DNA of 64,000 bases. It comes from Acidobacteriota bacterium. Lineage in GTDB: Bacteria > Acidobacteriota > Thermoanaerobaculia > Gp7-AA8. Below the pieces are notes generated by a model. It was not told the DNA's origin. It made no database searches and was given only the letters and a program-made list of their open reading frames with translations. The translations under genes and the position numbers were made by a program. Numbering within the stretch: position 1 is the first letter of the stretch; every line of letters begins with the position of its first letter. Shown here piece after piece: positions 3,186-10,735 of this stretch. The stretch lies in the NCBI GenBank assembly GCA_019244185.1, contig JAFATB010000006.1, positions 192,001 through 256,000 on the forward strand. The letters run 5' to 3'.

Positions 3186-3616
3186 ACAGGAAGGAAGTAG
3201 AAGTGCAGGCGCAGGAACGACGCTACAAGAGCATCACGAGGGTTGACTCATCCCGTGTGCACGGATGGTTCGTCCGCGTCGTGCACAACGGAGACACGCA
3301 TCCCAAACTCTTCAGCGACGGCAAGCACGGTGGCCGCGCTGCTGCATTGGCGGCAGCCGTTCGCTGGAGGAACAAGACTGAGCGCGCCATCGGCAAACCG
3401 CGTACCGAACGGATCGTCGTGGCGCGTAAGGCGGGTGCCGGAGTTCGTCGCAAGATCAAAGACGGCAGGCCAGTGTACGAAGTCACCTGGAGTCCGCGGC
3501 CGAAGAAAGTCAGCCGCACCACGTTTTCGATCGCGCTTTACGGCGAACGCGGCGCGCGCGATCTCGCGCACGCTCTGCGTGCCGAAATGGAGCGCCGCTA
3601 CTACGGATATCGATAG
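3182..3616 (+). CDS. Tandem AP2-domain DNA-binding protein (phage-type)
   Basis: Two AP2-like units: 'YKSITRVDSSRVHGWFVRV..KLFSDGKHGGRAAALAAAVRWRN' and 'GVRR..VYEVTW..SRTTFSIALYGERGARDLAHALRAEME'. ATGA coupling with the upstream gene. Confidence 0.75.
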   Translation: MNRKEVEVQAQERRYKSITRVDSSRVHGWFVRVVHNGDTHPKLFSDGKHGGRAAALAAAVRWRNKTERAIGKPRTERIVVARKAGAGVRRKIKDGRPVYEVTWSPRPKKVSRTTFSIALYGERGARDLAHALRAEMERRYYGYR

Positions 3617-3618
3617 AG

Positions 3619-3924
3619 ATGAACGATACGAACTTCCTGGATCTCGTCGAGAGCATTCGCCAAGCGGGAAAGATTCATCGCGCGATGCGCCGTCATCACA
3701 AGACCCGCAGCATCGCGGCGGCACGTCGTCTGGCCGAGCGGTGGAGCCGGCCGATCGATCGATGGCCGAATGAACGCGTGCGCAAGGCATGGGTTGAACG
3801 CACGGCGCGCCTCCTCGCCGATACACCGCACCAGTGCTCATCCACCATTCATGGCTGCGGACACAAACGCCAGCTTCTCGGCAGGACGATTCAGGAACGA
3901 AGAGCTGATGAGCGGGACGATTGA
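3619..3924 (+). CDS. Hypothetical protein (phage-like cluster)
   Basis: ATG 2 nt after the AP2 stop, GAG just upstream, helical N-terminus 'MNDTNFLDLVESIRQAGKIHR'. Confidence 0.5.
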   Translation: MNDTNFLDLVESIRQAGKIHRAMRRHHKTRSIAAARRLAERWSRPIDRWPNERVRKAWVERTARLLADTPHQCSSTIHGCGHKRQLLGRTIQERRADERDD

Positions 3925-4435
3925 GAAGGCGCGAGCGGTCCTCGCGCAACTGGAACAGACCACCGACGTTCCACGCGACGAGACTGCAGCTGCCTTGCGC
4001 GAGCTCATCGCGCTTGCCGAGGGTGTCTTCGAAGACCTCGACGACTGCAACACCAGAATCGCTCGTGCGGCGAAGGCAATCGGCGCGACGGGTTGTCCGG
4101 TGGATCAGCTGAACGCCGTGGTGCGCTACACCGAGCGCGTGGCACCGCACTTTCGCTACATCGCGGCTTCCGGTGAGCTGATTCACCGGCAGCGTGACGA
4201 GAACGGACTTCTGTCAAGCGAGTTTGTCGGGCCTATCGAGATCCGCCGTAATCGCGACGGTTCGCTGGATGAAGTCGTCGCGCAGAACGTGTTCGTCCAC
4301 CTGGAGCAGATGGCCGACAACTCGTGCTGGATGGGCGTCAGCACGTCCGACAACGCACATCTCATCCACGTCAACTTCTACTCGGATCGAGCAATCGAAG
4401 CGGAAGCTGAGGATCAGCATGCGGAGGAAGAGTGA
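3908..4435 (+). CDS. Hypothetical protein (phage-like; coiled-coil N-terminus, beta-rich C-terminus)
   Basis: The protein-like part of ORF 3770..4435 starts at ATG 3908 (MSGTIEKARAVLAQLE..) and overlaps the preceding gene. Confidence 0.6.
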   Translation: MSGTIEKARAVLAQLEQTTDVPRDETAAALRELIALAEGVFEDLDDCNTRIARAAKAIGATGCPVDQLNAVVRYTERVAPHFRYIAASGELIHRQRDENGLLSSEFVGPIEIRRNRDGSLDEVVAQNVFVHLEQMADNSCWMGVSTSDNAHLIHVNFYSDRAIEAEAEDQHAEEE

Positions 4436-4443
4436 TTGCCTTT

Positions 4444-5399
4444 TTACTTCTTCTTCGGAATCGTGCAGTCGAGAACAACCGGCGTGATGAAGAAGCCCTG
4501 CGGCCGGAAGTCCTCGGCCTGACGGGAGAGATGCGCCTCCATCTCCTCACGCGACCAGGAGTGGCACTGCTTCTTTCGTCCGTCCCCATCCGTCCAAGCT
4601 GAGGCACCGAACCAGGCCACGAGATAGATTCCGAATGGCGACGTCGAACTGCGCAGGTATTTCTCAACGAGCTGCGTTTCCATCGCGGTCGGCAAGTCGG
4701 TGTTCCAGCACCCCTTGACCTCGATCGTAACCACCAGCTTCGGATCGAGGTCGCGTCGCACGCCGCGCCCCACGGCTTCGATCTTGATGTCGGTGAAGAA
4801 ACGGTCGAAGACCTCCACTTCCTTGTTGGTGACCAAGTGCGGAAGCGCCAAATCGTCGTTCAGGAACCTGCGAATCCAGTCTCGAACTGCTCCCTCGTCC
4901 TTGGGTTGATCGTCATCCCACAGATACTTGGCCGTCGGGTCCTCGCTGTGTAGCTGCGCCTGCAGCCGCTGAAGCGACTCGATCACGACCTCCACGAGTC
5001 GCTCCGCATTCTGCACAACGCGGTTTCTTCGATCTGTCGCCAGCGCGAACAGCTCTTCCGGAGCGGGCGGAGTCCACGAATGCGTCTGTCGTTCCTCCTC
5101 CGCCATCATGATGAACTGGTCGTGAATGCGGTTCGGAAACGCGGCTTGGATGCGCCGCAGTTCGTCGACCCTTCCACGCTTGCGGAGAACGTTCAGCACC
5201 TCACTGATCGCGAGGCCGACCTGAGACTCCAGGCCCAGCTCCTCCTGCGCGCGACGCGTGTACAACCAGATCACGAGGTCAGCGATCTCGGAGTCTTTCA
5301 GCCTCGCGATGAATTCGCTGATTTGATCGGGGCCGAGGAGCGATTCGATGAGCTCCTGGCCGGTGTCACCGGCGATACGAACAAACGGCCACACCGACG
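4444..5399 (-). pseudogene. C-terminal part of a large NACHT/STAND-associated protein with a PD-(D/E)xK nuclease-like domain, truncated by the IS
   Basis: Motifs 'KDEGAVRDWI..EVEV..TDIKIEAV..VTIEVKGCWN..AMETQLVEKYL..GIYLVAWF' (D..ExK pattern). The reading frame runs up to the left TIR with no real start or RBS. Confidence 0.7.
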
Positions 5400-5435
5400 G
5401 GTGGTGGTTTACTTTGAACCTTTACTTGTAACAGG
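5400..5435 (+). repeat. Left terminal inverted repeat
   Basis: GGTGGTGGTTTACTTTGAACCTTTACTTGTAACAGG; 28/36 identical to the reverse complement of 8568-8603. Confidence 0.9.
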
Positions 5436-5466
5436 CCACGCGCCAGTTACAACCTACATTGAAACG

Positions 5467-5607
5467 TGGGTGGTGCCACCGTGGGAGTAACCCAGACATG
5501 CAGATGGGAACGTGGAGGTTTGGCTTCACCTGCGCTCGGCTCAAGACCGAGCCGCACCAGACCCCACCACACAACCCGTCCGCTCTTGCAATCGGTGGCA
5601 CCGCCCA
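5467..5607 (+). ncRNA. Structured RNA candidate, unit 1 (long hairpin, apical loop CTCAAGA)
   Basis: 15-bp closing stem 5467-5481/5593-5607. Inner stems 5500-5508/5575-5583, 5512-5523/5557-5567 and 5531-5539/5547-5556. G-U pairs indicate the + strand. Homologous to unit 2. Confidence 0.7.
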
Positions 5608-5630
5608 ACCTTGAGACCTACATTGGAGAT

Positions 5631-5760
5631 GGGGAGCGTGCGCATGAGTTAACCAGACTCAGACACTGAGCGGAGCGAGAGGTTGGGCACGCACCGGATT
5701 CCAGACCCGGCAGCACCCAGCGCTCGCATTACCCGTGTTTTGGCAATGCGCACGTTCCCC
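5631..5760 (+). ncRNA. Structured RNA candidate, unit 2 (long hairpin, apical loop TTCCAGA)
   Basis: 15-bp closing stem 5631-5645/5746-5760. Inner stems 5661-5666/5735-5740, 5675-5687/5716-5727 and 5694-5697/5707-5710. Same architecture as unit 1 with different stem sequences. Confidence 0.7.
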
Positions 5761-5773
5761 GACCTCAACCTGT

Positions 5774-5947
5774 TTACTTTCTGGATGGGTCCGGTTTGGT
5801 ACGTCGCTTGCTCTTTGGGAGGGCAGCGCGTTGACGTAGCACATCCCGGTCGGACACCGGTTTCGGACCAGTTTCGGTGTGTTCGATTACTACATCCAGA
5901 ACAGCGCGTGCTGCCTTGATCGGATCACCCCGTGATTTCGACTTCAT
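5774..5947 (-). CDS. Small basic IS passenger protein
   Basis: GAGGA RBS before ATG 5947. 'RGDPIKAARAVLDVVIEHTE' resembles the small basic proteins often seen beside ISMhu11-type transposases (from memory). Confidence 0.55.
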   Translation of the reverse strand: MKSKSRGDPIKAARAVLDVVIEHTETGPKPVSDRDVLRQRAALPKSKRRTKPDPSRK

Positions 5948-6248
5948 TGGTTCCTCGCTCACAGTCTGTAATTCTGTCTTCGAGCACGCTCAACCAGTCT
6001 TCCAAATCGTTCAACCTTGCTCCCAGACTGCTAAGCCGGGCTTCCAAACGGTACTGTTCTTGTTGTTTGTCCGCTGACTGGATCGATGCATGTTCTACCC
6101 ATAACCAAGCAAGCCACAACATCACGCCGGTTGTCAGCATGAACAGCGAGGCCAGCTTGCCTAGATAGATCAACTGCCTGCGACTGGCAGCAAACACCAC
6201 AACCGCCACCACACCGCACAGCACGTACACCCACCAGCGCGCCCTCAT
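5925..6248 (-). CDS. Membrane protein (2 TM helices plus coiled coil)
   Basis: Two hydrophobic segments, then heptad 'LEARLSSLGARLNDLEDWLSVLEDRI'. Start overlaps the upstream stop (ATGA). Confidence 0.65.
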   Translation of the reverse strand: MRARWWVYVLCGVVAVVVFAASRRQLIYLGKLASLFMLTTGVMLWLAWLWVEHASIQSADKQQEQYRLEARLSSLGARLNDLEDWLSVLEDRITDCERGTNEVEITG

Positions 6249-6547
6249 GGCGTCGCCGCCACACACCTGAACTGCACCTCCGCCTTTGGATAGTTGCCGA
6301 ACATGTACGGTGAATGACCGGTGAGAGTGTTCACCACCTGTAACATCTTCCCGTGTTCCGCGCAGAACCGACTCGCTTGCAAGGTGATGTCGGCAGTAAT
6401 CGAGTCTGAACCGATAAACCCTGTGGCTCCACGCTTATAAATCCTGTACATGTCCGTGCCGGGCAGCGCAACCACGCCCGTGGTTGAGCCGCATCCCGCG
6501 AGCATCAGCACGGCCTTTGCCACCATACGACGAAAGTGACGGTTCAT
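6245..6547 (-). CDS. Small lipoprotein
   Basis: Lipobox 'VLMLAGC', mature part with two further Cys ('ASRFCAEHGK..PKAEVQFRC'). Start set at ATG 6547 because the longer ORF overlaps the HTH gene. Confidence 0.7.
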   Translation of the reverse strand: MNRHFRRMVAKAVLMLAGCGSTTGVVALPGTDMYRIYKRGATGFIGSDSITADITLQASRFCAEHGKMLQVVNTLTGHSPYMFGNYPKAEVQFRCVAATP

Positions 6548-6636
6548 GCGGTTTGCCTCCATTCGCTCTGATACCCATAGAATGGATACCGAAAGCATGG
6601 AAAGCAAGCGCTTAACACGAACAACACTTTCGCCGA

Positions 6637-6882
6637 ATGGCGGCGCGGAGCCCAGCGGTACAGTTAGTTGGAGCACGATTGAGGGAGTTGCGGAAGTCTC
6701 GCGGACTCTCACAGGAACAACTCGGCCATCTATGCGGACTCGACCGTAACTACGTCGGTCAAATCGAGCGAGGCAACCGCAACCCTTGTTTGGACAACAT
6801 CGTGAAACTGGCAAAGGCGCTCGGCGTAACACCCGCAGACCTGTTCAGCCGGTTCGACCTCGACACGATGAGGGATGTATAA
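6637..6882 (+). CDS. XRE/Cro-family helix-turn-helix transcriptional regulator
   Basis: 'GARLRELRKSRGLSQEQLGHLCGLDRNYVGQIERGNRNPCLDNIVKLAKALGV' is a canonical HTH_3 pattern. Confidence 0.93.
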   Translation: MAARSPAVQLVGARLRELRKSRGLSQEQLGHLCGLDRNYVGQIERGNRNPCLDNIVKLAKALGVTPADLFSRFDLDTMRDV

Positions 6883-7008
6883 GGGGAATGGGGGTAACTG
6901 GGGCGCGTCCGAACCGCGCTGATGGGAACCGAAGTAGGCGTCAGTTTGTGGAACTGACCAGCCACGCCTCTCAGTACCTGTGACACCAGTTGCCCCCATT
7001 CCCCTTAT
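6879..7008 (+). ncRNA. Long-stem hairpin element 3 (23-bp inverted repeat, 84-nt structured interior)
   Basis: 6879-6901 pairs with 6986-7008 with one G-U on the + strand. Interior hairpins GCGCG-TCCGAAC-CGCGC and GTCAGTT-TGTGG-AACTGAC. Confidence 0.6.
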
Positions 7009-7152
7009 CGTTTGAATCCCACCTCGGCGCGTGTATGCCCACGGCAACAGCGCCATCAACCACTACATTCCTGTGGAATACCACCGATCCGGCCATCCGA
7101 CCGGTGTCAAGTCTGGCGTATCCACGTTACGACTCACATTGTAGGTAAGCAT

Positions 7153-7963
7153 ATGAGGAGACTGCCTAAATCCACCCGCACCAGAATTCTTGCTGCTCTC
7201 GTCGAAGGTAATTCCATTGCATCCACCTGCCGACTGGTGGGTGTGGCCAAGCTCACCGTACTGCGGCTACTGGAGGAAGTCGGTGAAGCGTGTACGGCAT
7301 TCAGCGACCGGTTCATTACCGGCATTGAATCGCCGCACGTACAGGTGGACGAGATGTGGGGGTTCTGTCAGCAGAAACAGAAGAACGTATCCCCGGAGAA
7401 TGCGGGCGTTCTGGGGTATGGCAACGTCTGGACCTACATCGCAATAGACTCACGGTCCAAACTGGTAATCACGTGGCGTGTGCGGGCATCGTAACGAGCA
7501 GACCACACGTGACTTCCTGCATGACTTGGCGTCCCGGCTGACTGGACCCGTTACGCTCTCTACTGACGGGTTCATGGGATACGTCAATGCGATACCGGAA
7601 GCGTTTGACGGAACGCTGAACTACGGGGCTGTGGAGAAACTGTACGAGCGTAACCGGTACGTCGGTGCGAACTACACGAACCGAGTGGGAAACCCGTCGA
7701 AGATATCCACGTCCCTCATCGAGCGCCAGAACCTCACGGTGAGAATGTCAAACCGGCGCATGACGCGCAAGACGAACGGTTTCTCGAAGAAACTGTCCAA
7801 CCACATCTACCAGCTGGCAATCAACTTCGTCTACTACAACTTCGTCCGCACTCACGCCACCATCAAGACGACACCAGCGCTTGCAGCCGGGATCATCGAC
7901 TACCAGTTGTCGCTTGCCGATATGACCGAGTTGGCAATCTGGAGCGATGTGCAGGCGGCGTAA
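7153..7963 (+). pseudogene. IS1-family DDE transposase with a 1-nt frameshift near 7483
   Basis: N-terminal HTH 'LVEGNSIASTCRLVGVAKLTVLRLL'. Catalytic motifs 'VQVDEMWGF', 'LSTDG' and 'STSLIERQNLTVRM..R..RKTNGFSKK'. Split between ORFs 7012..7494 and 7478..7963. Confidence 0.9.
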
Positions 7964-7977
7964 ACAGGCACAATTAC

Positions 7978-8076
7978 GCAGGCTGTCCCAATGGTCGGTA
8001 CCGTTGCGGGATTTACACTCCCGGTAGGCTCGCTGCCGTTGCCAGCGATGGGGTTCAACTCCCACAGCCTCCGCAA
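7978..8076 (+). tRNA. Irregular tRNA-like gene (8-bp acceptor, 4-bp T-stem, tRNA-Sec-like D-arm, long variable arm; anticodon TAC)
   Basis: Acceptor GCAGGCTG/CAGCCTCC (7/8 paired), discriminator G8073. D-stem CAATGGT-CGGT-ACCGTTG. Anticodon arm CGGGA-TTTACAC-TCCCG. 25-nt variable region. T-arm TGGG(G)-TTCAACT-CCCA. Ends CAA rather than CCA. Confidence 0.7.
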
Positions 8077-8084
8077 ACCCAGTC

Positions 8085-8231
8085 TAACAGGTGGGGTGAG
8101 TGGAACCATCCAAACTCGCGGTGACGACTACTGCTTGCGGGACGACTTTCCGAACGTCGGCGGCAGTTGTACGTCTGTGACACTTTGGCGAACGGATTTG
8201 GTTTGGATGGTTCCACTCACCCCACCTGTTA
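8085..8231 (+). ncRNA. Long-stem hairpin element 4 (perfect 31-bp inverted repeat, 85-nt structured interior)
   Basis: 8085-8115 TAACAGGTGGGGTGAGTGGAACCATCCAAAC is the exact reverse complement of 8201-8231. Interior 8116-8180 folds as an extended hairpin with loop ACTTTCCGAA. Confidence 0.65.
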
Positions 8232-8249
8232 TGTGCAGACTGCGTTATT

Positions 8250-8258
8250 TGCTATACT
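8250..8258 (+). promoter_or_regulatory. Putative extended -10 promoter (TGcTATACT) for the 8268 gene
   Basis: TGnTATACT lies 9 nt before the ATG and there is no SD, so the mRNA may be near-leaderless. Confidence 0.4.
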
Positions 8259-8267
8259 CTCAACCCC

Positions 8268-8594
8268 ATGACGGTCGAAGAGATACGCGTACAGAAAGCA
8301 CTGGCGATGTTGGAAGTGGAAGAGGCCGAGACCGCCCACGCTGCTGCCAGTGAGCACGCCCACGAGTTGCAAGTGGCAACTAGTGAGGCGATCAGTACTG
8401 CCCTCGATATTGCCCGTCGTTTGCCTGTGCAGGTGGATCGACTGCGCGAGACGTTGGCAGGGATTGATCTGGACGGGCTGTCAGAGGCACAGACGCAGGC
8501 CGAACGGTTTCTTGGTGCCGCTGCGGCCGCCCGAGTGAAACTGCGCGAGTTTCAACTACCCGGACGACCTGTTACAAGTGGATGGGGAAAGTAA
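8268..8594 (+). CDS. Alpha-helical/coiled-coil IS passenger protein
   Basis: 108-aa Ala/Glu-rich ORF whose stop codon lies within the right TIR. Confidence 0.6.
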   Translation: MTVEEIRVQKALAMLEVEEAETAHAAASEHAHELQVATSEAISTALDIARRLPVQVDRLRETLAGIDLDGLSEAQTQAERFLGAAAAARVKLREFQLPGRPVTSGWGK

Positions 8595-8603
8595 ACCAGT
8601 ACC
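8568..8603 (-). repeat. Right terminal inverted repeat
   Basis: Reverse complement is GGTACTGGTTTACTTTCCCCATCCACTTGTAACAGG. Confidence 0.9.
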
Positions 8604-8965
8604 CGATAACCTGCACCGGTGTGAGTTGGCCGCGTTCGGCCGCAACGTGCATTGTAGCGACGGCAATCTCTCGCGTTTTCAGATACCAAACCCAGGTCTA
8701 TCGGTGAAGATCATCAAGGATGATGACCGTCGAACGCCCACCGGTATTCATGAAACTGCCAAACTTCTTTTTCGCCCACCCCAGCGCCGATCCCGCAAAC
8801 GCTTTGAAATACCGAGCGTCGTGTTCTGGCACTGCTCGCCGACCGGATCGCGGCCATTAACCGGGTCGCCGCCCGCAAATGTGTAAGGCGTTGAAGAGTC
8901 TTGATAATTCGGATCCGGCGGCACGAATGTGCCGGTCAAGGAATCCAGCCACCGCTCCCTTGCAG
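8604..8965 (-). pseudogene. Orphan RHS core end plus pre-toxin linker, truncated by the IS
   Basis: 'ARERWLDSLTGTFVPPDP..YTFAGGDPVNGRDPVG.QCQNTTL', then after a frameshift 'GWAKKKFGSFMNTGG..AERGQLTPVQVIG'. This matches the main toxin 'ARERWFD..YTFAGGDPVNDRDPSG..CKNTTL..QWAKGAFVGFMNFGG..VERGEGTPVYVIG'. Confidence 0.8.
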
Positions 8966-9003
8966 ACACGCTAGCCACTTGACTGCATACAATCGCGGCT
9001 CCG

Positions 9004-9555
9004 CTAAAATCGACTACTTCGGCGGTTGCGTTGCATTATTTTGCGGTTCCGCGCTGCGGTGTAGTCTTTACCGTGGTCAACAGAAGGCGAATCTGAAATA
9101 TCCGAATATGGGCCGTCGGCAGCCATCTCAGGGAAGGCACGCACCGGCACTTCTACGCCTCGGACCTGTGTTACGGGCTCATATTCCACAGGTGCAAACA
9201 TCATCGGTATAAAGTCCGTGGCGAAGAATGTTCCCACTGCTATGGCGCGACTGCGATCCGCAGCCGTGATGGTCGTGAAGCCCTGGCCAGGAACGTACAG
9301 GATCTCGCCGTCTGCATCAGCGCGTGCAACCGCCGCTTCGAACGTCGCGATGTCGTTGACCATCGTCCGCTTCGCGAGTTCGTAATATTCTGTCGTGACG
9401 GTCAAATCGGCCATCTGCGTTTCGTAATCGCCGCCAATCGCGCCGCTCGTGTCGTACCACTTCCGCGCTACTGGCACACGAAGCGGCTGCCTGAACGACC
9501 TACGTTCGGTTCTCGTGAAATCGTCATAGACCTTCTTACCGCGCCCTTTCAGCAT
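9004..9555 (-). pseudogene. Orphan toxin C-terminal fragment (lead-in of an HNH-type toxin, catalytic part missing)
   Basis: 'GPYSDISDSPSVDHGKDYTAARNRKIMQRNRR' resembles the segment preceding HNH toxin domains in RHS tips (from memory). Lower GC, located in the orphan array. Confidence 0.55.
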
Positions 9556-9564
9556 CGCGAACCG

Positions 9565-10735
9565 CTCGCGTTTGCGTGGCGTCGACTTTCGTCTGCGCCG
9601 CGTCATGCGGCCGTTCGCCGTGTAGCTCGCCTGCGCGACTCGCCGATGAGCGTGCCGACCGCGCGTAGGTCTTGACGCTCTTCGGGTTGCCCCAGTCGTC
9701 GAAGTCGGTGACGGTCTTCACGCCGTTCGGAGCGAGCGACGACGTCGCGCGGCCGTGGACGTCGTACGCGACGGCGCTCGCGCTGTGGTTGTCGGCCGAG
9801 TAGACGAGGTTGCCCGCGAGGTCGTACGCGTACTGTTCGACGATCGGCGTGCCGCCGGTGGTCGTGGTGCGCTTCGCGATTCGTCCGAGCCCATCCAGTT
9901 CTTCCGTGACCACCGCGCCGCCGGGCAGCATGCGCACGATCTTGCGATTGGTGAGGTCGTAGTCGGTGGTCGTGGTGACGGAGGTGAGGCCCTCGCCCAC
10001 CGCGACGTTGTTCGTCGTCGACTGCTTCACGCGACCGAGCGGGTCGTACGCGAGCGACGTGGTCACGCTGTGGCCGTCCTGCTTGTGCGTGGTCTCGGTG
10101 AGGCGTCCGTTGAGGTCGTACTTGGACGACTCCTCGAGCGAGAGCGACGGGCCGGTGGTGACGCTCGACACCGGACGGCGCCAGCCGTCGAGGTTCGTGA
10201 GCGTCGAGACGCCGCGCTCCTCGTCGACCTTGATCTGATCGGGCCCCGGATACGCGAACTTCGTCTGCAGGCCGGAGGCATCGACGAGCTCCGGCATCGC
10301 GCGCGCGTACTCCGGCGCGGTGGCGTCGCGGAACTTGTAGCTGACTGACGCGTTGCCGCCGGCGTCGGTGCCGCCCGTGCTCGTGACGGTTTTCGGCTGG
10401 CCGTACGCGTCGACTTCGACCGTCGTCGTGATGGCGTCGTTCGTGGCCGCGACGCTCTTCTTCATCGCGCTCGGCTCGGAGGTATGGATCGTGTCGCTGC
10501 CGATGCTGACGCTCTCGAGATACGCGGGACGCGGATTCGACGATGCGTCGTCGTAGCCGAAGGTCCGCTTGATCGGCGTCGCGCCGCTGCCGCTCGTTTC
10601 GCTGGTGAAGAGCACGAAGCCGGGCGCGCCGGGCTCGATCGATTTGTAGGTGTTCGTCGTCGTGCGGATCGTGCTCGTGGCGCCGATGCCGAGAGCTCGC
10701 TTCGTCGTTTGTCGTCCTTTGAGCATGCGCCGCGG
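9565..10735 (-). repeat. Near-identical duplicate (about 1.15 kb) of an internal YD-repeat segment of the giant RHS gene (about 16188-17375)
   Basis: ORF 9536..10726 repeats 'GIGATS..TIRTTTNTYKSIEPGAPGFVLFT..DDWGNPKS' almost verbatim. The DNA aligns with scattered substitutions and indels at the ends. Confidence 0.93.

Follow-up and report, generated by a model that had tools for sequence, protein, structure and literature searches.

Can an insertion sequence carry structured RNAs among its passengers? The question is raised by a 3.2-kb element at positions 5400-8603 of a 64,000-nt stretch of genomic DNA (hereafter the window, whose numbering is used throughout; positions 192,001 to 256,000 of contig JAFATB010000006.1, GenBank assembly GCA_019244185.1) from an acidobacterial genome of 5.30 Mb and 67.1% G+C (lineage Thermoanaerobaculia; Gp7-AA8). 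An initial annotation, made from the sequence alone, had described an IS1-family insertion sequence (IS) whose gaps hold four long-stem hairpins (H1 to H4) and a tRNA-like cloverleaf, and had proposed that it is a mobile carrier of non-coding RNA with an organisation not described before. We read the element as a decayed, single-copy IS1-family transposon of the passenger-carrying kind with + strand non-coding RNA cargo, a reading to which we give even weight for and against. Its order, from left to right, is left end, H1, H2, three small - strand open reading frames (ORFs), a helix-turn-helix (HTH) regulator gene on the + strand, H3, transposase, cloverleaf, H4, a 108-aa ORF and right end (Table 1), and by arithmetic from the coordinates the five folds occupy ~645 of its ~1030 non-coding bases.

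The IS1-family element and its four hairpins

The element is bounded by terminal inverted repeats in which 5398-5435 pairs with 8568-8605 (38 nt, 79% complementary). The left repeat follows a pattern common to the repeats of related elements (GGTGGTGGT...TTTGAA...GTAACAG), and the same pattern bounds the related loci L017, L022 and L026, with one end detected in each of L029 (on the right-end side) and L018. A search with the transposase returned 600 homologues at E <= 1e-3, many of them carrying PF03400 or named IS1 family transposase, while the transposase fragment itself scores below the cut-offs of Pfam (21.6 vs 24.1) and NCBIfam (22.6 vs 100). Because repeats of this kind bound elements in the genome and the genus, we conclude that the initial annotation had delimited the element correctly and had rightly assigned it to IS1-family elements with passenger genes. 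IS1 elements of the ISMhu11 group (ISfinder/TnPedia) carry passenger genes, and our element resembles that group in the single-ORF transposase of its relatives, in variable length and in extra genes between the terminal repeats; it differs in that tRNA-type genes and other structured RNA are part of the cargo, both here and in relatives, a feature that our literature search did not find described. A full-text search for "ISMhu11" returned no paper.

The element looks dead, given a frameshifted transposase, a single copy and the lack of a target-site duplication. Specifically, the transposase is split by one extra base at 7480-7483, within the catalytic domain as judged from the alignment, whereas homologous transposases are typically single ORFs of 270-280 aa. 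The flanks CACCGACG and CGATAACC differ where a duplication of 8-10 bp is expected; the gene at the left flank is truncated, so the site may have been rearranged later. In its own genome the element has one copy, the only other match being 148 nt of transposase in a second element, and a search of 60 relatives for further copies matched only HTH and transposase pieces. Plasmid searches with the element (blastn) gave no match. Four of the listed DNA sequencing runs contain the element, and their contigs have the same sequence, with no variant that lacks any unit.

All four hairpins are inverted repeats located exactly where the initial annotation had placed them, and they fold far beyond shuffled sequences. 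The closing arms are 5467-5481/5593-5607 in H1 (15 nt, 93%), 5631-5645/5746-5760 in H2 (15 nt, 93%), 6879-6901/6986-7008 in H3 (23 nt, 96%) and 8085-8115/8201-8231 in H4 (31 nt, 100%). On the + strand the fold z-scores are -6.02, -5.74, -7.06 and -10.49 for H1 to H4, with 0 of 200 shuffles as good, and on the - strand they are -3.88, -4.25, -6.07 and -11.14. Structured units lie in every large gap of the element. A scan of the 5.3-Mb genome for stems of >=15 bp around loops of 50-160 nt gave 124 matches, nearly all from two or three dispersed palindromic repeat families that are unrelated to H1-H4, and H3 and H4 each occur once; a density of four units in 3.2 kb is far above the genome background. 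The dispersed repeats themselves fall into at least three families (e.g., C2:408381-408532, C1:14736-14858 and C15:22669-22831), of which one is G+C-rich with arms of ~40-55 nt, loops of ~55-67 nt and dozens of copies, a second consists of inverted arrays of a GAACGCA-type heptamer and a third is rarer.

H1 and H2 are tandem paralogues. A covariance model built from H1 alone and its minimum-energy structure recovers H2 full-length (36.7 bits, E 2.9e-6 over the 64-kb window). The alignment of the two, which was fitted to the structure and holds only these two paralogues, has 47 pairs in six helices; 94.5% of its cells are standard pairs, against 33-43% when the partners are slid by 1-3 columns. 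Fifteen of the 47 pairs are changed on both sides, eight of them in the 15-bp closing stem, and neither the pairing nor the double changes were equalled by any of 500 shuffles. The closing stems of H1 and H2 are unlike in sequence, and both are fully paired.

The kinship extends, more faintly, to the other two units. With a model of H1 and H2 together, H3 scores 19.5 bits (+) and 12.3 bits (-); once H3 is added to the alignment 94.4% of cells are paired, with changes on both sides of 23 pairs. It fits helices 1, 2, 4 and 6 of the six and is without helix 5 and part of helix 3. H4 scores 16.6 bits (+) and 16.9 bits (-), no better than is expected of any long hairpin. Two short motifs, both noticed after the fact, also recur among the units: GATGGGAAC follows the first inner hairpin in H1 and H3 (three matches in the window, 0.26 expected), and in both H3 and H4 the 9-mer CTGTGACAC stands before the 3' closing arm, with no further copy in the window or in unrelated loci. 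A further motif, TTKGCRAWB, showed no enrichment, and a MAFFT alignment of H1-H3 was structurally useless. From sequence and modelled structure we read H1-H3 as a putative single family, with H4 a probable distant member.

The mismatches of these units bear on the question of strand. In each of H1, H2 and H3 the single closing-stem mismatch is G-U or U-G on the + strand and A-C on the - strand, and several inner pairs of the hairpins are also G-U. Together with the better + strand z-scores of H1-H3, the G-U pairs favour a + strand RNA, with + strand single-stranded DNA a formally possible bearer of the same structure. The G-U bias that had been claimed for all four hairpins thus holds for H1-H3 but not for H4, which shows no strand preference. 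Directly ahead of H1 and H2 stand the only two exact copies of CCTACATTG in 64 kb. Its -10-like hexamer TACATT is found again in L026, 17 nt after TTGACA and upstream of an ORF, and CCTACATTG may accordingly be viewed as a candidate promoter element.

Irregular tRNA genes in related elements and the cloverleaf

Related IS1 elements habitually carry irregular tRNA genes between their terminal repeats. Of the ten loci examined in the genus, four (L017, L018, L024 and L026) have a 75-77-nt tRNA that lacks a long variable arm and carries ACU or GCU as its anticodon, placed on the strand of the transposase and 88-153 nt upstream of it; three of the four score 56-61 bits with the Rfam tRNA model, and in L017 and L026 the gene lies inside the terminal repeats. 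Intact relatives encode the DDE transposase as a single ORF of about 275-295 aa, and their elements vary in length, from the plain 1.76 kb of L022 through 3.2 kb here and 3.7 kb in L026 to 6.2 kb in L017. L026 (G000:C6:471000-483000, element 5481-9184), a sister IS1 copy in the same genome, is flanked by the 8-bp direct duplication GGAAGTAT; it holds a frameshifted transposase, tandem tRNA-type genes at 6806-6879 and 6720-6794 (-), an HTH gene, several small ORFs and, at 7639-7804 between two same-strand ORFs, a hairpin with 60-nt arms. In L026 and in the metagenomic locus L084 a second tRNA-like gene stands just ahead of the first and matches the tRNA-like domain of transfer-messenger RNA (39.6 and 36.5 bits). 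In L025 a similar tRNA-like sequence has the loop CUUUAGA and a 6-bp D stem capped by a tetraloop, and its acceptor stem is long.

The pattern recurs beyond the genus. The closest transposase (P0002) is 70% identical and sits on a 4-kb record, and all others are <=51% identical, among them those of 81 further IS1 loci (one genome locus and 80 metagenome loci). ARAGORN called 14 tRNA genes in 11 of these 81, all 11 among the 54 longer loci and none among the 27 short ones; in nine of the 11 the tRNA is within ~400 nt of the transposase by estimated starts, with L092 and L104 as exceptions. In metagenomic L029, whose transposase is intact and 47% identical to ours, four tRNAs (1079-2164) fill the interval between transposase and a terminal-repeat-like end. 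Two of them are long-arm tRNAs with discriminator G and anticodons CUA (amber) and UAA, the latter abutting the terminal repeat; the others are a tRNA with an 8-nt anticodon loop (read as "tacc" by ARAGORN) and a tRNA-Gln on the other strand. Interspersed with these tRNAs are a 277-nt and a 127-nt closed structured unit (z -5.7 and -5.2), neither of them homologous to H1-H4. A distant relative thus repeats the order of transposase, long-arm tRNA and closed structured unit. If IS copies simply happened to insert next to tRNA genes, both the abnormal anticodons and architectures and the positions within terminal repeats would be left unexplained.

The 6.2-kb element of L017 has further structured features. 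A DUF3800-VIII RNA lies within it at 3787-3857 (+; Rfam 52.4 bits, gathering threshold 40.2), adjoined on the opposite strand by a 281-aa ORF (3855-4700), and a perfect 28-bp hairpin occupies 3574-3663. Its right end lies in the loop of an inverted repeat with 75-nt arms (8876-9225, 97% complementary), with a second partial copy of the terminal repeat at 9206-9225, which looks like an inverted duplication at the element's end.

The cloverleaf of our element begins 14 nt after the transposase stop codon and has a tRNA-Sec-like architecture. The Rfam family RF01852 aligns with it full-length (model 1-91) at 27.2 bits, E 0.019 over 4227 families, which is below the gathering threshold of 47 bits, and its anticodon is UAC rather than UCA. 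The 9-bp acceptor stem (7978-7986/8064-8072) has eight of nine positions paired with one C-C mismatch, and is followed in the aligned structure by a 3-bp T stem (8051-8053/8061-8063) with the 7-nt loop UUCAACU, which the minimum-energy fold draws instead as a 4-bp stem and 6-nt loop. The D stem is of 6-7 bp with the tetraloop CGGU, which contains GG. A 5-bp anticodon stem (8007-8011/8019-8023) closes the loop UUUACAC, with U33 and a purine at 37 in place; the variable region is 27 nt with a 7-bp stem, and the discriminator G at 8073 is followed by CAA, not CCA.

Whether this is a tRNA-type gene has to be weighed against an accidental fold in the 3' region of the transposase. For the accident speak a fold no better than shuffles (z -1.09, 27 of 200 as good), the absence of any tRNA gene called by ARAGORN in the whole window and an RF01852 score 20 bits under threshold, on a model with which the real selC of the genome scores 71.1 bits and ordinary long-arm tRNAs ~52. 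The acceptor mismatch and the short anticodon stem point the same way, as do the homologue searches: a model of the cloverleaf (R3) found nothing in 150 relatives and, in 91 IS1 loci, only itself and a weak match (18.4 bits, E 0.84) to the tRNA-like sequence upstream of the L025 transposase. When RF01852 was run over the 150 relatives, its matches were ordinary long-arm tRNAs and, for nearly every genome, the genuine selC, and it was of no help in finding allo-tRNAs. An accident, on the other hand, does not account for a full-length match at an E-value already corrected for all families, for a T loop, U33, purine 37, D-loop GG and discriminator G that are all in place, or for a position beside the transposase, where related elements keep tRNA genes. 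We regard the accidental fold as somewhat doubtful and a tRNA-type origin as fairly probable. The initial description of a tRNA-like cloverleaf is thus upheld in its four arms and tRNA-Sec-like architecture but not by the folding statistics or by ARAGORN, and it gains weight from the real and irregular tRNA genes that related IS1 elements hold beside the transposase. Given the low RF01852 score and the lack of a homologue, the gene may be a diverged or decaying one, and may be active or a pseudogene.

The cloverleaf has a counterpart in the literature. Allo-tRNAs of the 8/4 and 9/3 types and polycistrons of irregular tRNAs were described from Acidobacteria (Mukai et al., 2017; PMC5389517), findings repeated in a 2020 review (PMC7609411). 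As far as the portions of these papers that bear on our locus go, an allo-tRNA(UAU) pseudogene overlaps a transposon-related ORF, allo-tRNA genes lie near toxin-antitoxin loci, some are pseudogenes with disrupted base pairs, and irregular-tRNA polycistrons, including 8/4 forms and a GCU anticodon, appear in soil metatranscriptomes; many irregular tRNAs were suggested not to be used in translation (PMC5389517). Compared with what those portions describe, our cloverleaf shares the 12-bp acceptor/T branch in 9/3 arrangement, a long D stem with tetraloop, a long variable arm, a discriminator G (serine identity G73/U73) and a non-serine anticodon, and the tandem irregular tRNAs upstream of the transposase in L026 and L084 resemble the polycistrons. 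It differs in that UAC is not among the 9/3 anticodons listed there (Arg, Leu and the UAA codon), in its anticodon stem, which at 5 bp is not lengthened, and in its C-C acceptor mismatch.

The organisation had been taken as undescribed, and this holds for one part of it only. An association of such tRNAs with transposons and toxin-antitoxin loci is already present in the relevant sections of Mukai et al. (2017), so that the tRNA-like part adds a new member, with a more sharply drawn context, to a kind that is known but little understood. Those sections do not mention IS1 or tRNA genes within terminal repeats, and the word "hairpin" is absent from the text of the paper by text search; our literature search, which had partial journal coverage, did not find IS1 elements described as carriers of tRNA genes. 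H1-H4, by contrast, match no family. Rfam 15 gave no match at gathering score in the whole window; within the element at E <= 10 it gave the tRNA-Sec match and three others (E 1.1-9.6) that we take as chance, of which the only one over a hairpin was H19_3 (E 1.1, - strand, over H3). The H1-H4 family appears to be new, and is an orphan.

Competing explanations of the hairpins

Several results count against the reading of the element as a carrier of + strand RNA. Besides being apparently dead, the element is found in no RNA run among the listed sequencing runs that contain its sequence, and a sigma-70 consensus scan gave 0 promoters and no convincing terminator, with none at the units. The H1+H2 model (R2) found nothing beyond H1 and H2 in the rest of the genome, nothing in 150 relatives or in a 150-genome sample of the phylum, and only one spurious 32-nt hairpin (E 0.88) in the 91 IS1 loci (0.5 Mb). 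Five genomes flagged as unpublished are among the relatives searched, and they enter negative counts only. As the family was found nowhere else, all covariation lies between paralogues of a single element, whose alignment came from a model made of these same sequences; the tie of H3 and H4 to H1 and H2 consists of weak model scores (16.6-19.5 bits) and the post hoc motifs, and H4 lacks a strand preference in both fold z-scores and model scores. The expectation that covarying hairpins would recur in related elements was therefore not borne out, although the inner and closing helices of H1 and H2 do covary. The proposal of a mobile carrier of non-coding RNA retains structured + strand units and relatives with tRNA cargo, but its hairpins were found in none of the relatives searched.

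If the RNAs are made, the cargo would consist of a tRNA-Sec-like 9/3 "allo-tRNA" cloverleaf (UAC) and a family of four RNAs of 130-147 nt, in which a core that is conserved in part is enclosed by a long stem whose sequence is peculiar to each member. H1 and H2 would each be transcribed from a weak promoter of their own, whose -10-like box ends 5-6 nt before the stem. The long closing stems could fix the RNA termini and shield them from nucleases, whether by forming stable terminal hairpins or by serving as stalks at which a double-strand RNase processes the transcript, and the H RNAs might work in trans with the tRNA-like RNA as a mobile RNA module. Double-stranded stalks around rRNAs and some phage and tRNA transcripts are substrates of RNase III. 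The long near-perfect flanking stems of H1-H4, free in sequence as long as they pair and enclosing a structured core of ~85-110 nt, resemble such stalks, whereas the cores are not rRNA or tRNA, and the likeness would be one of possible working and not of family membership. Bacterial Y RNAs (YrlA) are similar in size (~100-150 nt), in the long stem formed by their 5' and 3' ends and in a link to tRNA mimicry; H1-H4 differ in having no Rfam Y RNA match at E <= 10 and no recognised tRNA-like T or D loops.

The chief alternative is that the hairpins act in cis as RNA punctuation, by which transcripts are terminated, insulated or marked for cleavage at the borders between cargo cassettes. Transcription from outside would be halted at the left end by H1 and H2, the transposase would be separated from the HTH message by H3, and H4 would close the unit of transposase and tRNA-like gene, so that transposase expression stays low, as is common for IS elements. 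The placement fits: each unit is placed precisely within a gap between genes, with H3 starting at the HTH stop codon and H4 lying between the cloverleaf and the ORF that follows. In relatives the interval between HTH gene and transposase holds tRNA genes, which are likewise cut out of transcripts, and the L026 hairpin lies between two same-strand ORFs. The transposase genes of IS10, IS50 and IS1 are shielded from read-through, a protection that such punctuation could provide. The conserved cores and upstream motifs, however, are not easily explained in this way. Units of 130-147 nt with conserved inner helices and motifs go far beyond the needs of a terminator, no U-tracts follow them and the terminator scan found nothing there; the same -10-like motif at the same distance before H1 and H2 suggests that RNAs are started, not ended, at these points; and the L026 hairpin folds slightly better on the strand opposite its flanking genes. 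We consider cis-acting punctuation unlikely.

Less probable again, and in our judgement very unlikely, is that the hairpins are DNA-level palindromes without an RNA role, such as remnants of miniature inverted-repeat transposable elements (MITEs), foldback insertions or attC-like sites. Units of ~130-150 bp inside a mobile element, each with 85-111 bp enclosed by long inverted repeats of 15-31 bp that are perfect or nearly so, do invite this comparison, and the genome is rich in dispersed palindromic repeats. The ends of attC sites follow RYYYAAC ... GTTRRRY, and H4, which is the unit without strand preference, starts with ...TAAC and ends with GTTA.... Yet MITEs and attC sites combine conserved ends and a variable centre with many copies, whereas H1-H4 have variable ends and a conserved core (the arms of H1 and H2 are wholly unlike and their cores related) and each is single-copy in the genome. 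No target duplications are evident, the three closing-stem mismatches are all G-U on one strand, the inner helices covary, and IS1 transposition is not known to have a single-stranded stage. A MITE or dispersed palindromic repeat was rejected, as the units match only themselves in the genome and the closing stems of the paralogues differ; so was an integron attC site, since AAC/GTT ends were seen by eye in H4 only and not in H1-H3 (no integrase search was made). The DNA-level explanations thus fail the tests run.

A bolder version of the RNA-cargo reading, which we think extremely improbable, would make this IS1 clade a dedicated vehicle for recoding tRNAs and companion RNAs, with the tRNA-like gene here serving the transposase itself. 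The only visible defect of the transposase is an extra base right after a GUG valine codon, and the cloverleaf bears the valine anticodon UAC. Were GTGC (7480-7483) decoded as a four-base codon (+1) by the element's own UAC tRNA, transposase synthesis would depend on the cargo RNA; read as one step, GTGC restores the frame and a full-length, homology-consistent protein, with the last three residues changed as well because a second in-frame GTGC stands near the end. The normal 7-nt anticodon loop and the varied ends of the split N-terminal fragments of relatives weigh against this, and make an ordinary disabling mutation far more likely. A conserved programmed frameshift was rejected as the main account of the split, since the N-terminal fragments of homologues end at varied places.

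Protein genes, flanking DNA and implications

The remaining features of the element are protein genes (Table 1). The HTH regulator is 55-63% identical to the HTH proteins of related elements and resembles the control proteins of restriction-modification systems and antitoxin-type repressors (PADLOC, NCBIfam). The initial suggestion that the RNAs may mimic anticodons and serve as decoys for anticodon nucleases or as RNA antitoxins is speculative, and found neither support nor contradiction; the resemblance of the HTH protein is one fact of relevance to it. The 113-aa ORF has no family in Pfam, PADLOC or NCBIfam, and its Atlas leads are all <0.9; the putative lipoprotein matches no family in these three collections either, and just two weak matches were found for it in 150 relatives. 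These two genes overlap on the - strand as a lipoprotein and a membrane-anchored coiled-coil protein, a pair loosely like phage spanins, but the gene order is reversed and there is no family match. For the 108-aa ORF, which is without a Pfam, PADLOC or NCBIfam family, the Atlas model (lead <0.9) suggests a helical hairpin, as a lead only.

Table 1. Features of the IS1-family element, in window coordinates.
Feature	Position	Strand	Basis
Left terminal inverted repeat	5400..5435	no strand	Inverted-repeat scan (5398-5435/8568-8605)
Motif CCTACATTG (contains -10-like TACATT), 6 nt upstream of H1	5453..5461	+	Exact copy
H1, 141 nt, 15-bp closing stem, small hairpin, long irregular arm	5467..5607	+	Inverted repeat, fold
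Motif CCTACATTG, second copy, 5 nt upstream of H2	5617..5625	+	Exact copy
H2, 130-nt paralogue of H1	5631..5760	+	Inverted repeat, fold, H1-model match
62-aa ORF, doubtful reality	5774..5962	-	ORF list; no family in Pfam, PADLOC, NCBIfam
113-aa ORF, hydrophobic N-terminal segments and coiled-coil tail	5925..6266	-	ORF list
Putative lipoprotein, ~100 aa, signal peptide ending LMLAGC	6245..6550	-	Sequence
XRE-type helix-turn-helix regulator	6637..6882	+	Pfam HTH_3 E 2.1e-17; PADLOC "control protein" E 3.8e-22
H3, 130 nt, 23-bp closing stem, begins on HTH stop codon	6879..7008	+	Inverted repeat, fold
Inverted CCTACATTG copy, 1 mismatch, 8 nt upstream of transposase start	7137..7145	-	Motif search
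IS1-family DDE transposase, two ORFs (7153-7494 and 7478-7963)	7153..7963	+	ORFs, Pfam, homologues
tRNA-Sec-like cloverleaf	7978..8073	+	RF01852 alignment, fold, sequence
H4, 147 nt, 31-bp perfect closing stem	8085..8231	+ (as listed; no strand preference)	Inverted repeat, fold
108-aa helical ORF running into right terminal repeat	8268..8594	+	ORF list
Right terminal inverted repeat	8568..8603	no strand	Inverted-repeat scan

The first 13.5 kb of the window have only 55-64% G+C, which suggests acquired DNA. Abutting the left end is a 316-aa ORF (4444-5394, -) whose reading frame runs to the end of the IS. The profiles of two NACHT antiphage proteins, EruA (E 3.9e-25; positions 1094-1303 of 1318) and HyoA (E 2.7e-14; 1215-1410 of 1430), match it over their C-terminal ~200 residues, with scores far under the full-length cut-offs, and no N-terminal part of it was seen beyond the other side of the element; possibly the IS, or a deletion that it mediated, has cut short a defence gene here. 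This likeness is a second fact of relevance to the decoy and antitoxin suggestions. To the right, 8604-9000 holds short broken ORFs only, followed by a 396-aa ORF (9536-10726, -) that appears to be a fragment of a repeat-rich (YD/RHS-like) protein.

The weight that this locus can bear is limited by a decayed element and orphan RNAs that are predicted only. If the RNAs are made, an insertion sequence would move tRNA-type genes and a new class of structured RNA between genomes, and not only protein genes. The tRNA-type genes of its relatives include amber-suppressor-like, ochre-like and eight-base-loop forms, and the tRNA cargo inside IS1 terminal repeats extends the observations of Mukai et al. 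(2017; PMC5389517), at least as given in the sections relevant here. H1-H4 would then represent a new RNA motif, with a conserved core inside a stem that varies in sequence but is strictly paired, and the allo-tRNAs and "irregular tRNA polycistrons" of soil bacteria would gain a concrete vehicle and a genetic context, within which the candidate functions of allo-tRNAs are recoding, control of the transposase and service as decoys for toxins or defences that attack tRNAs.

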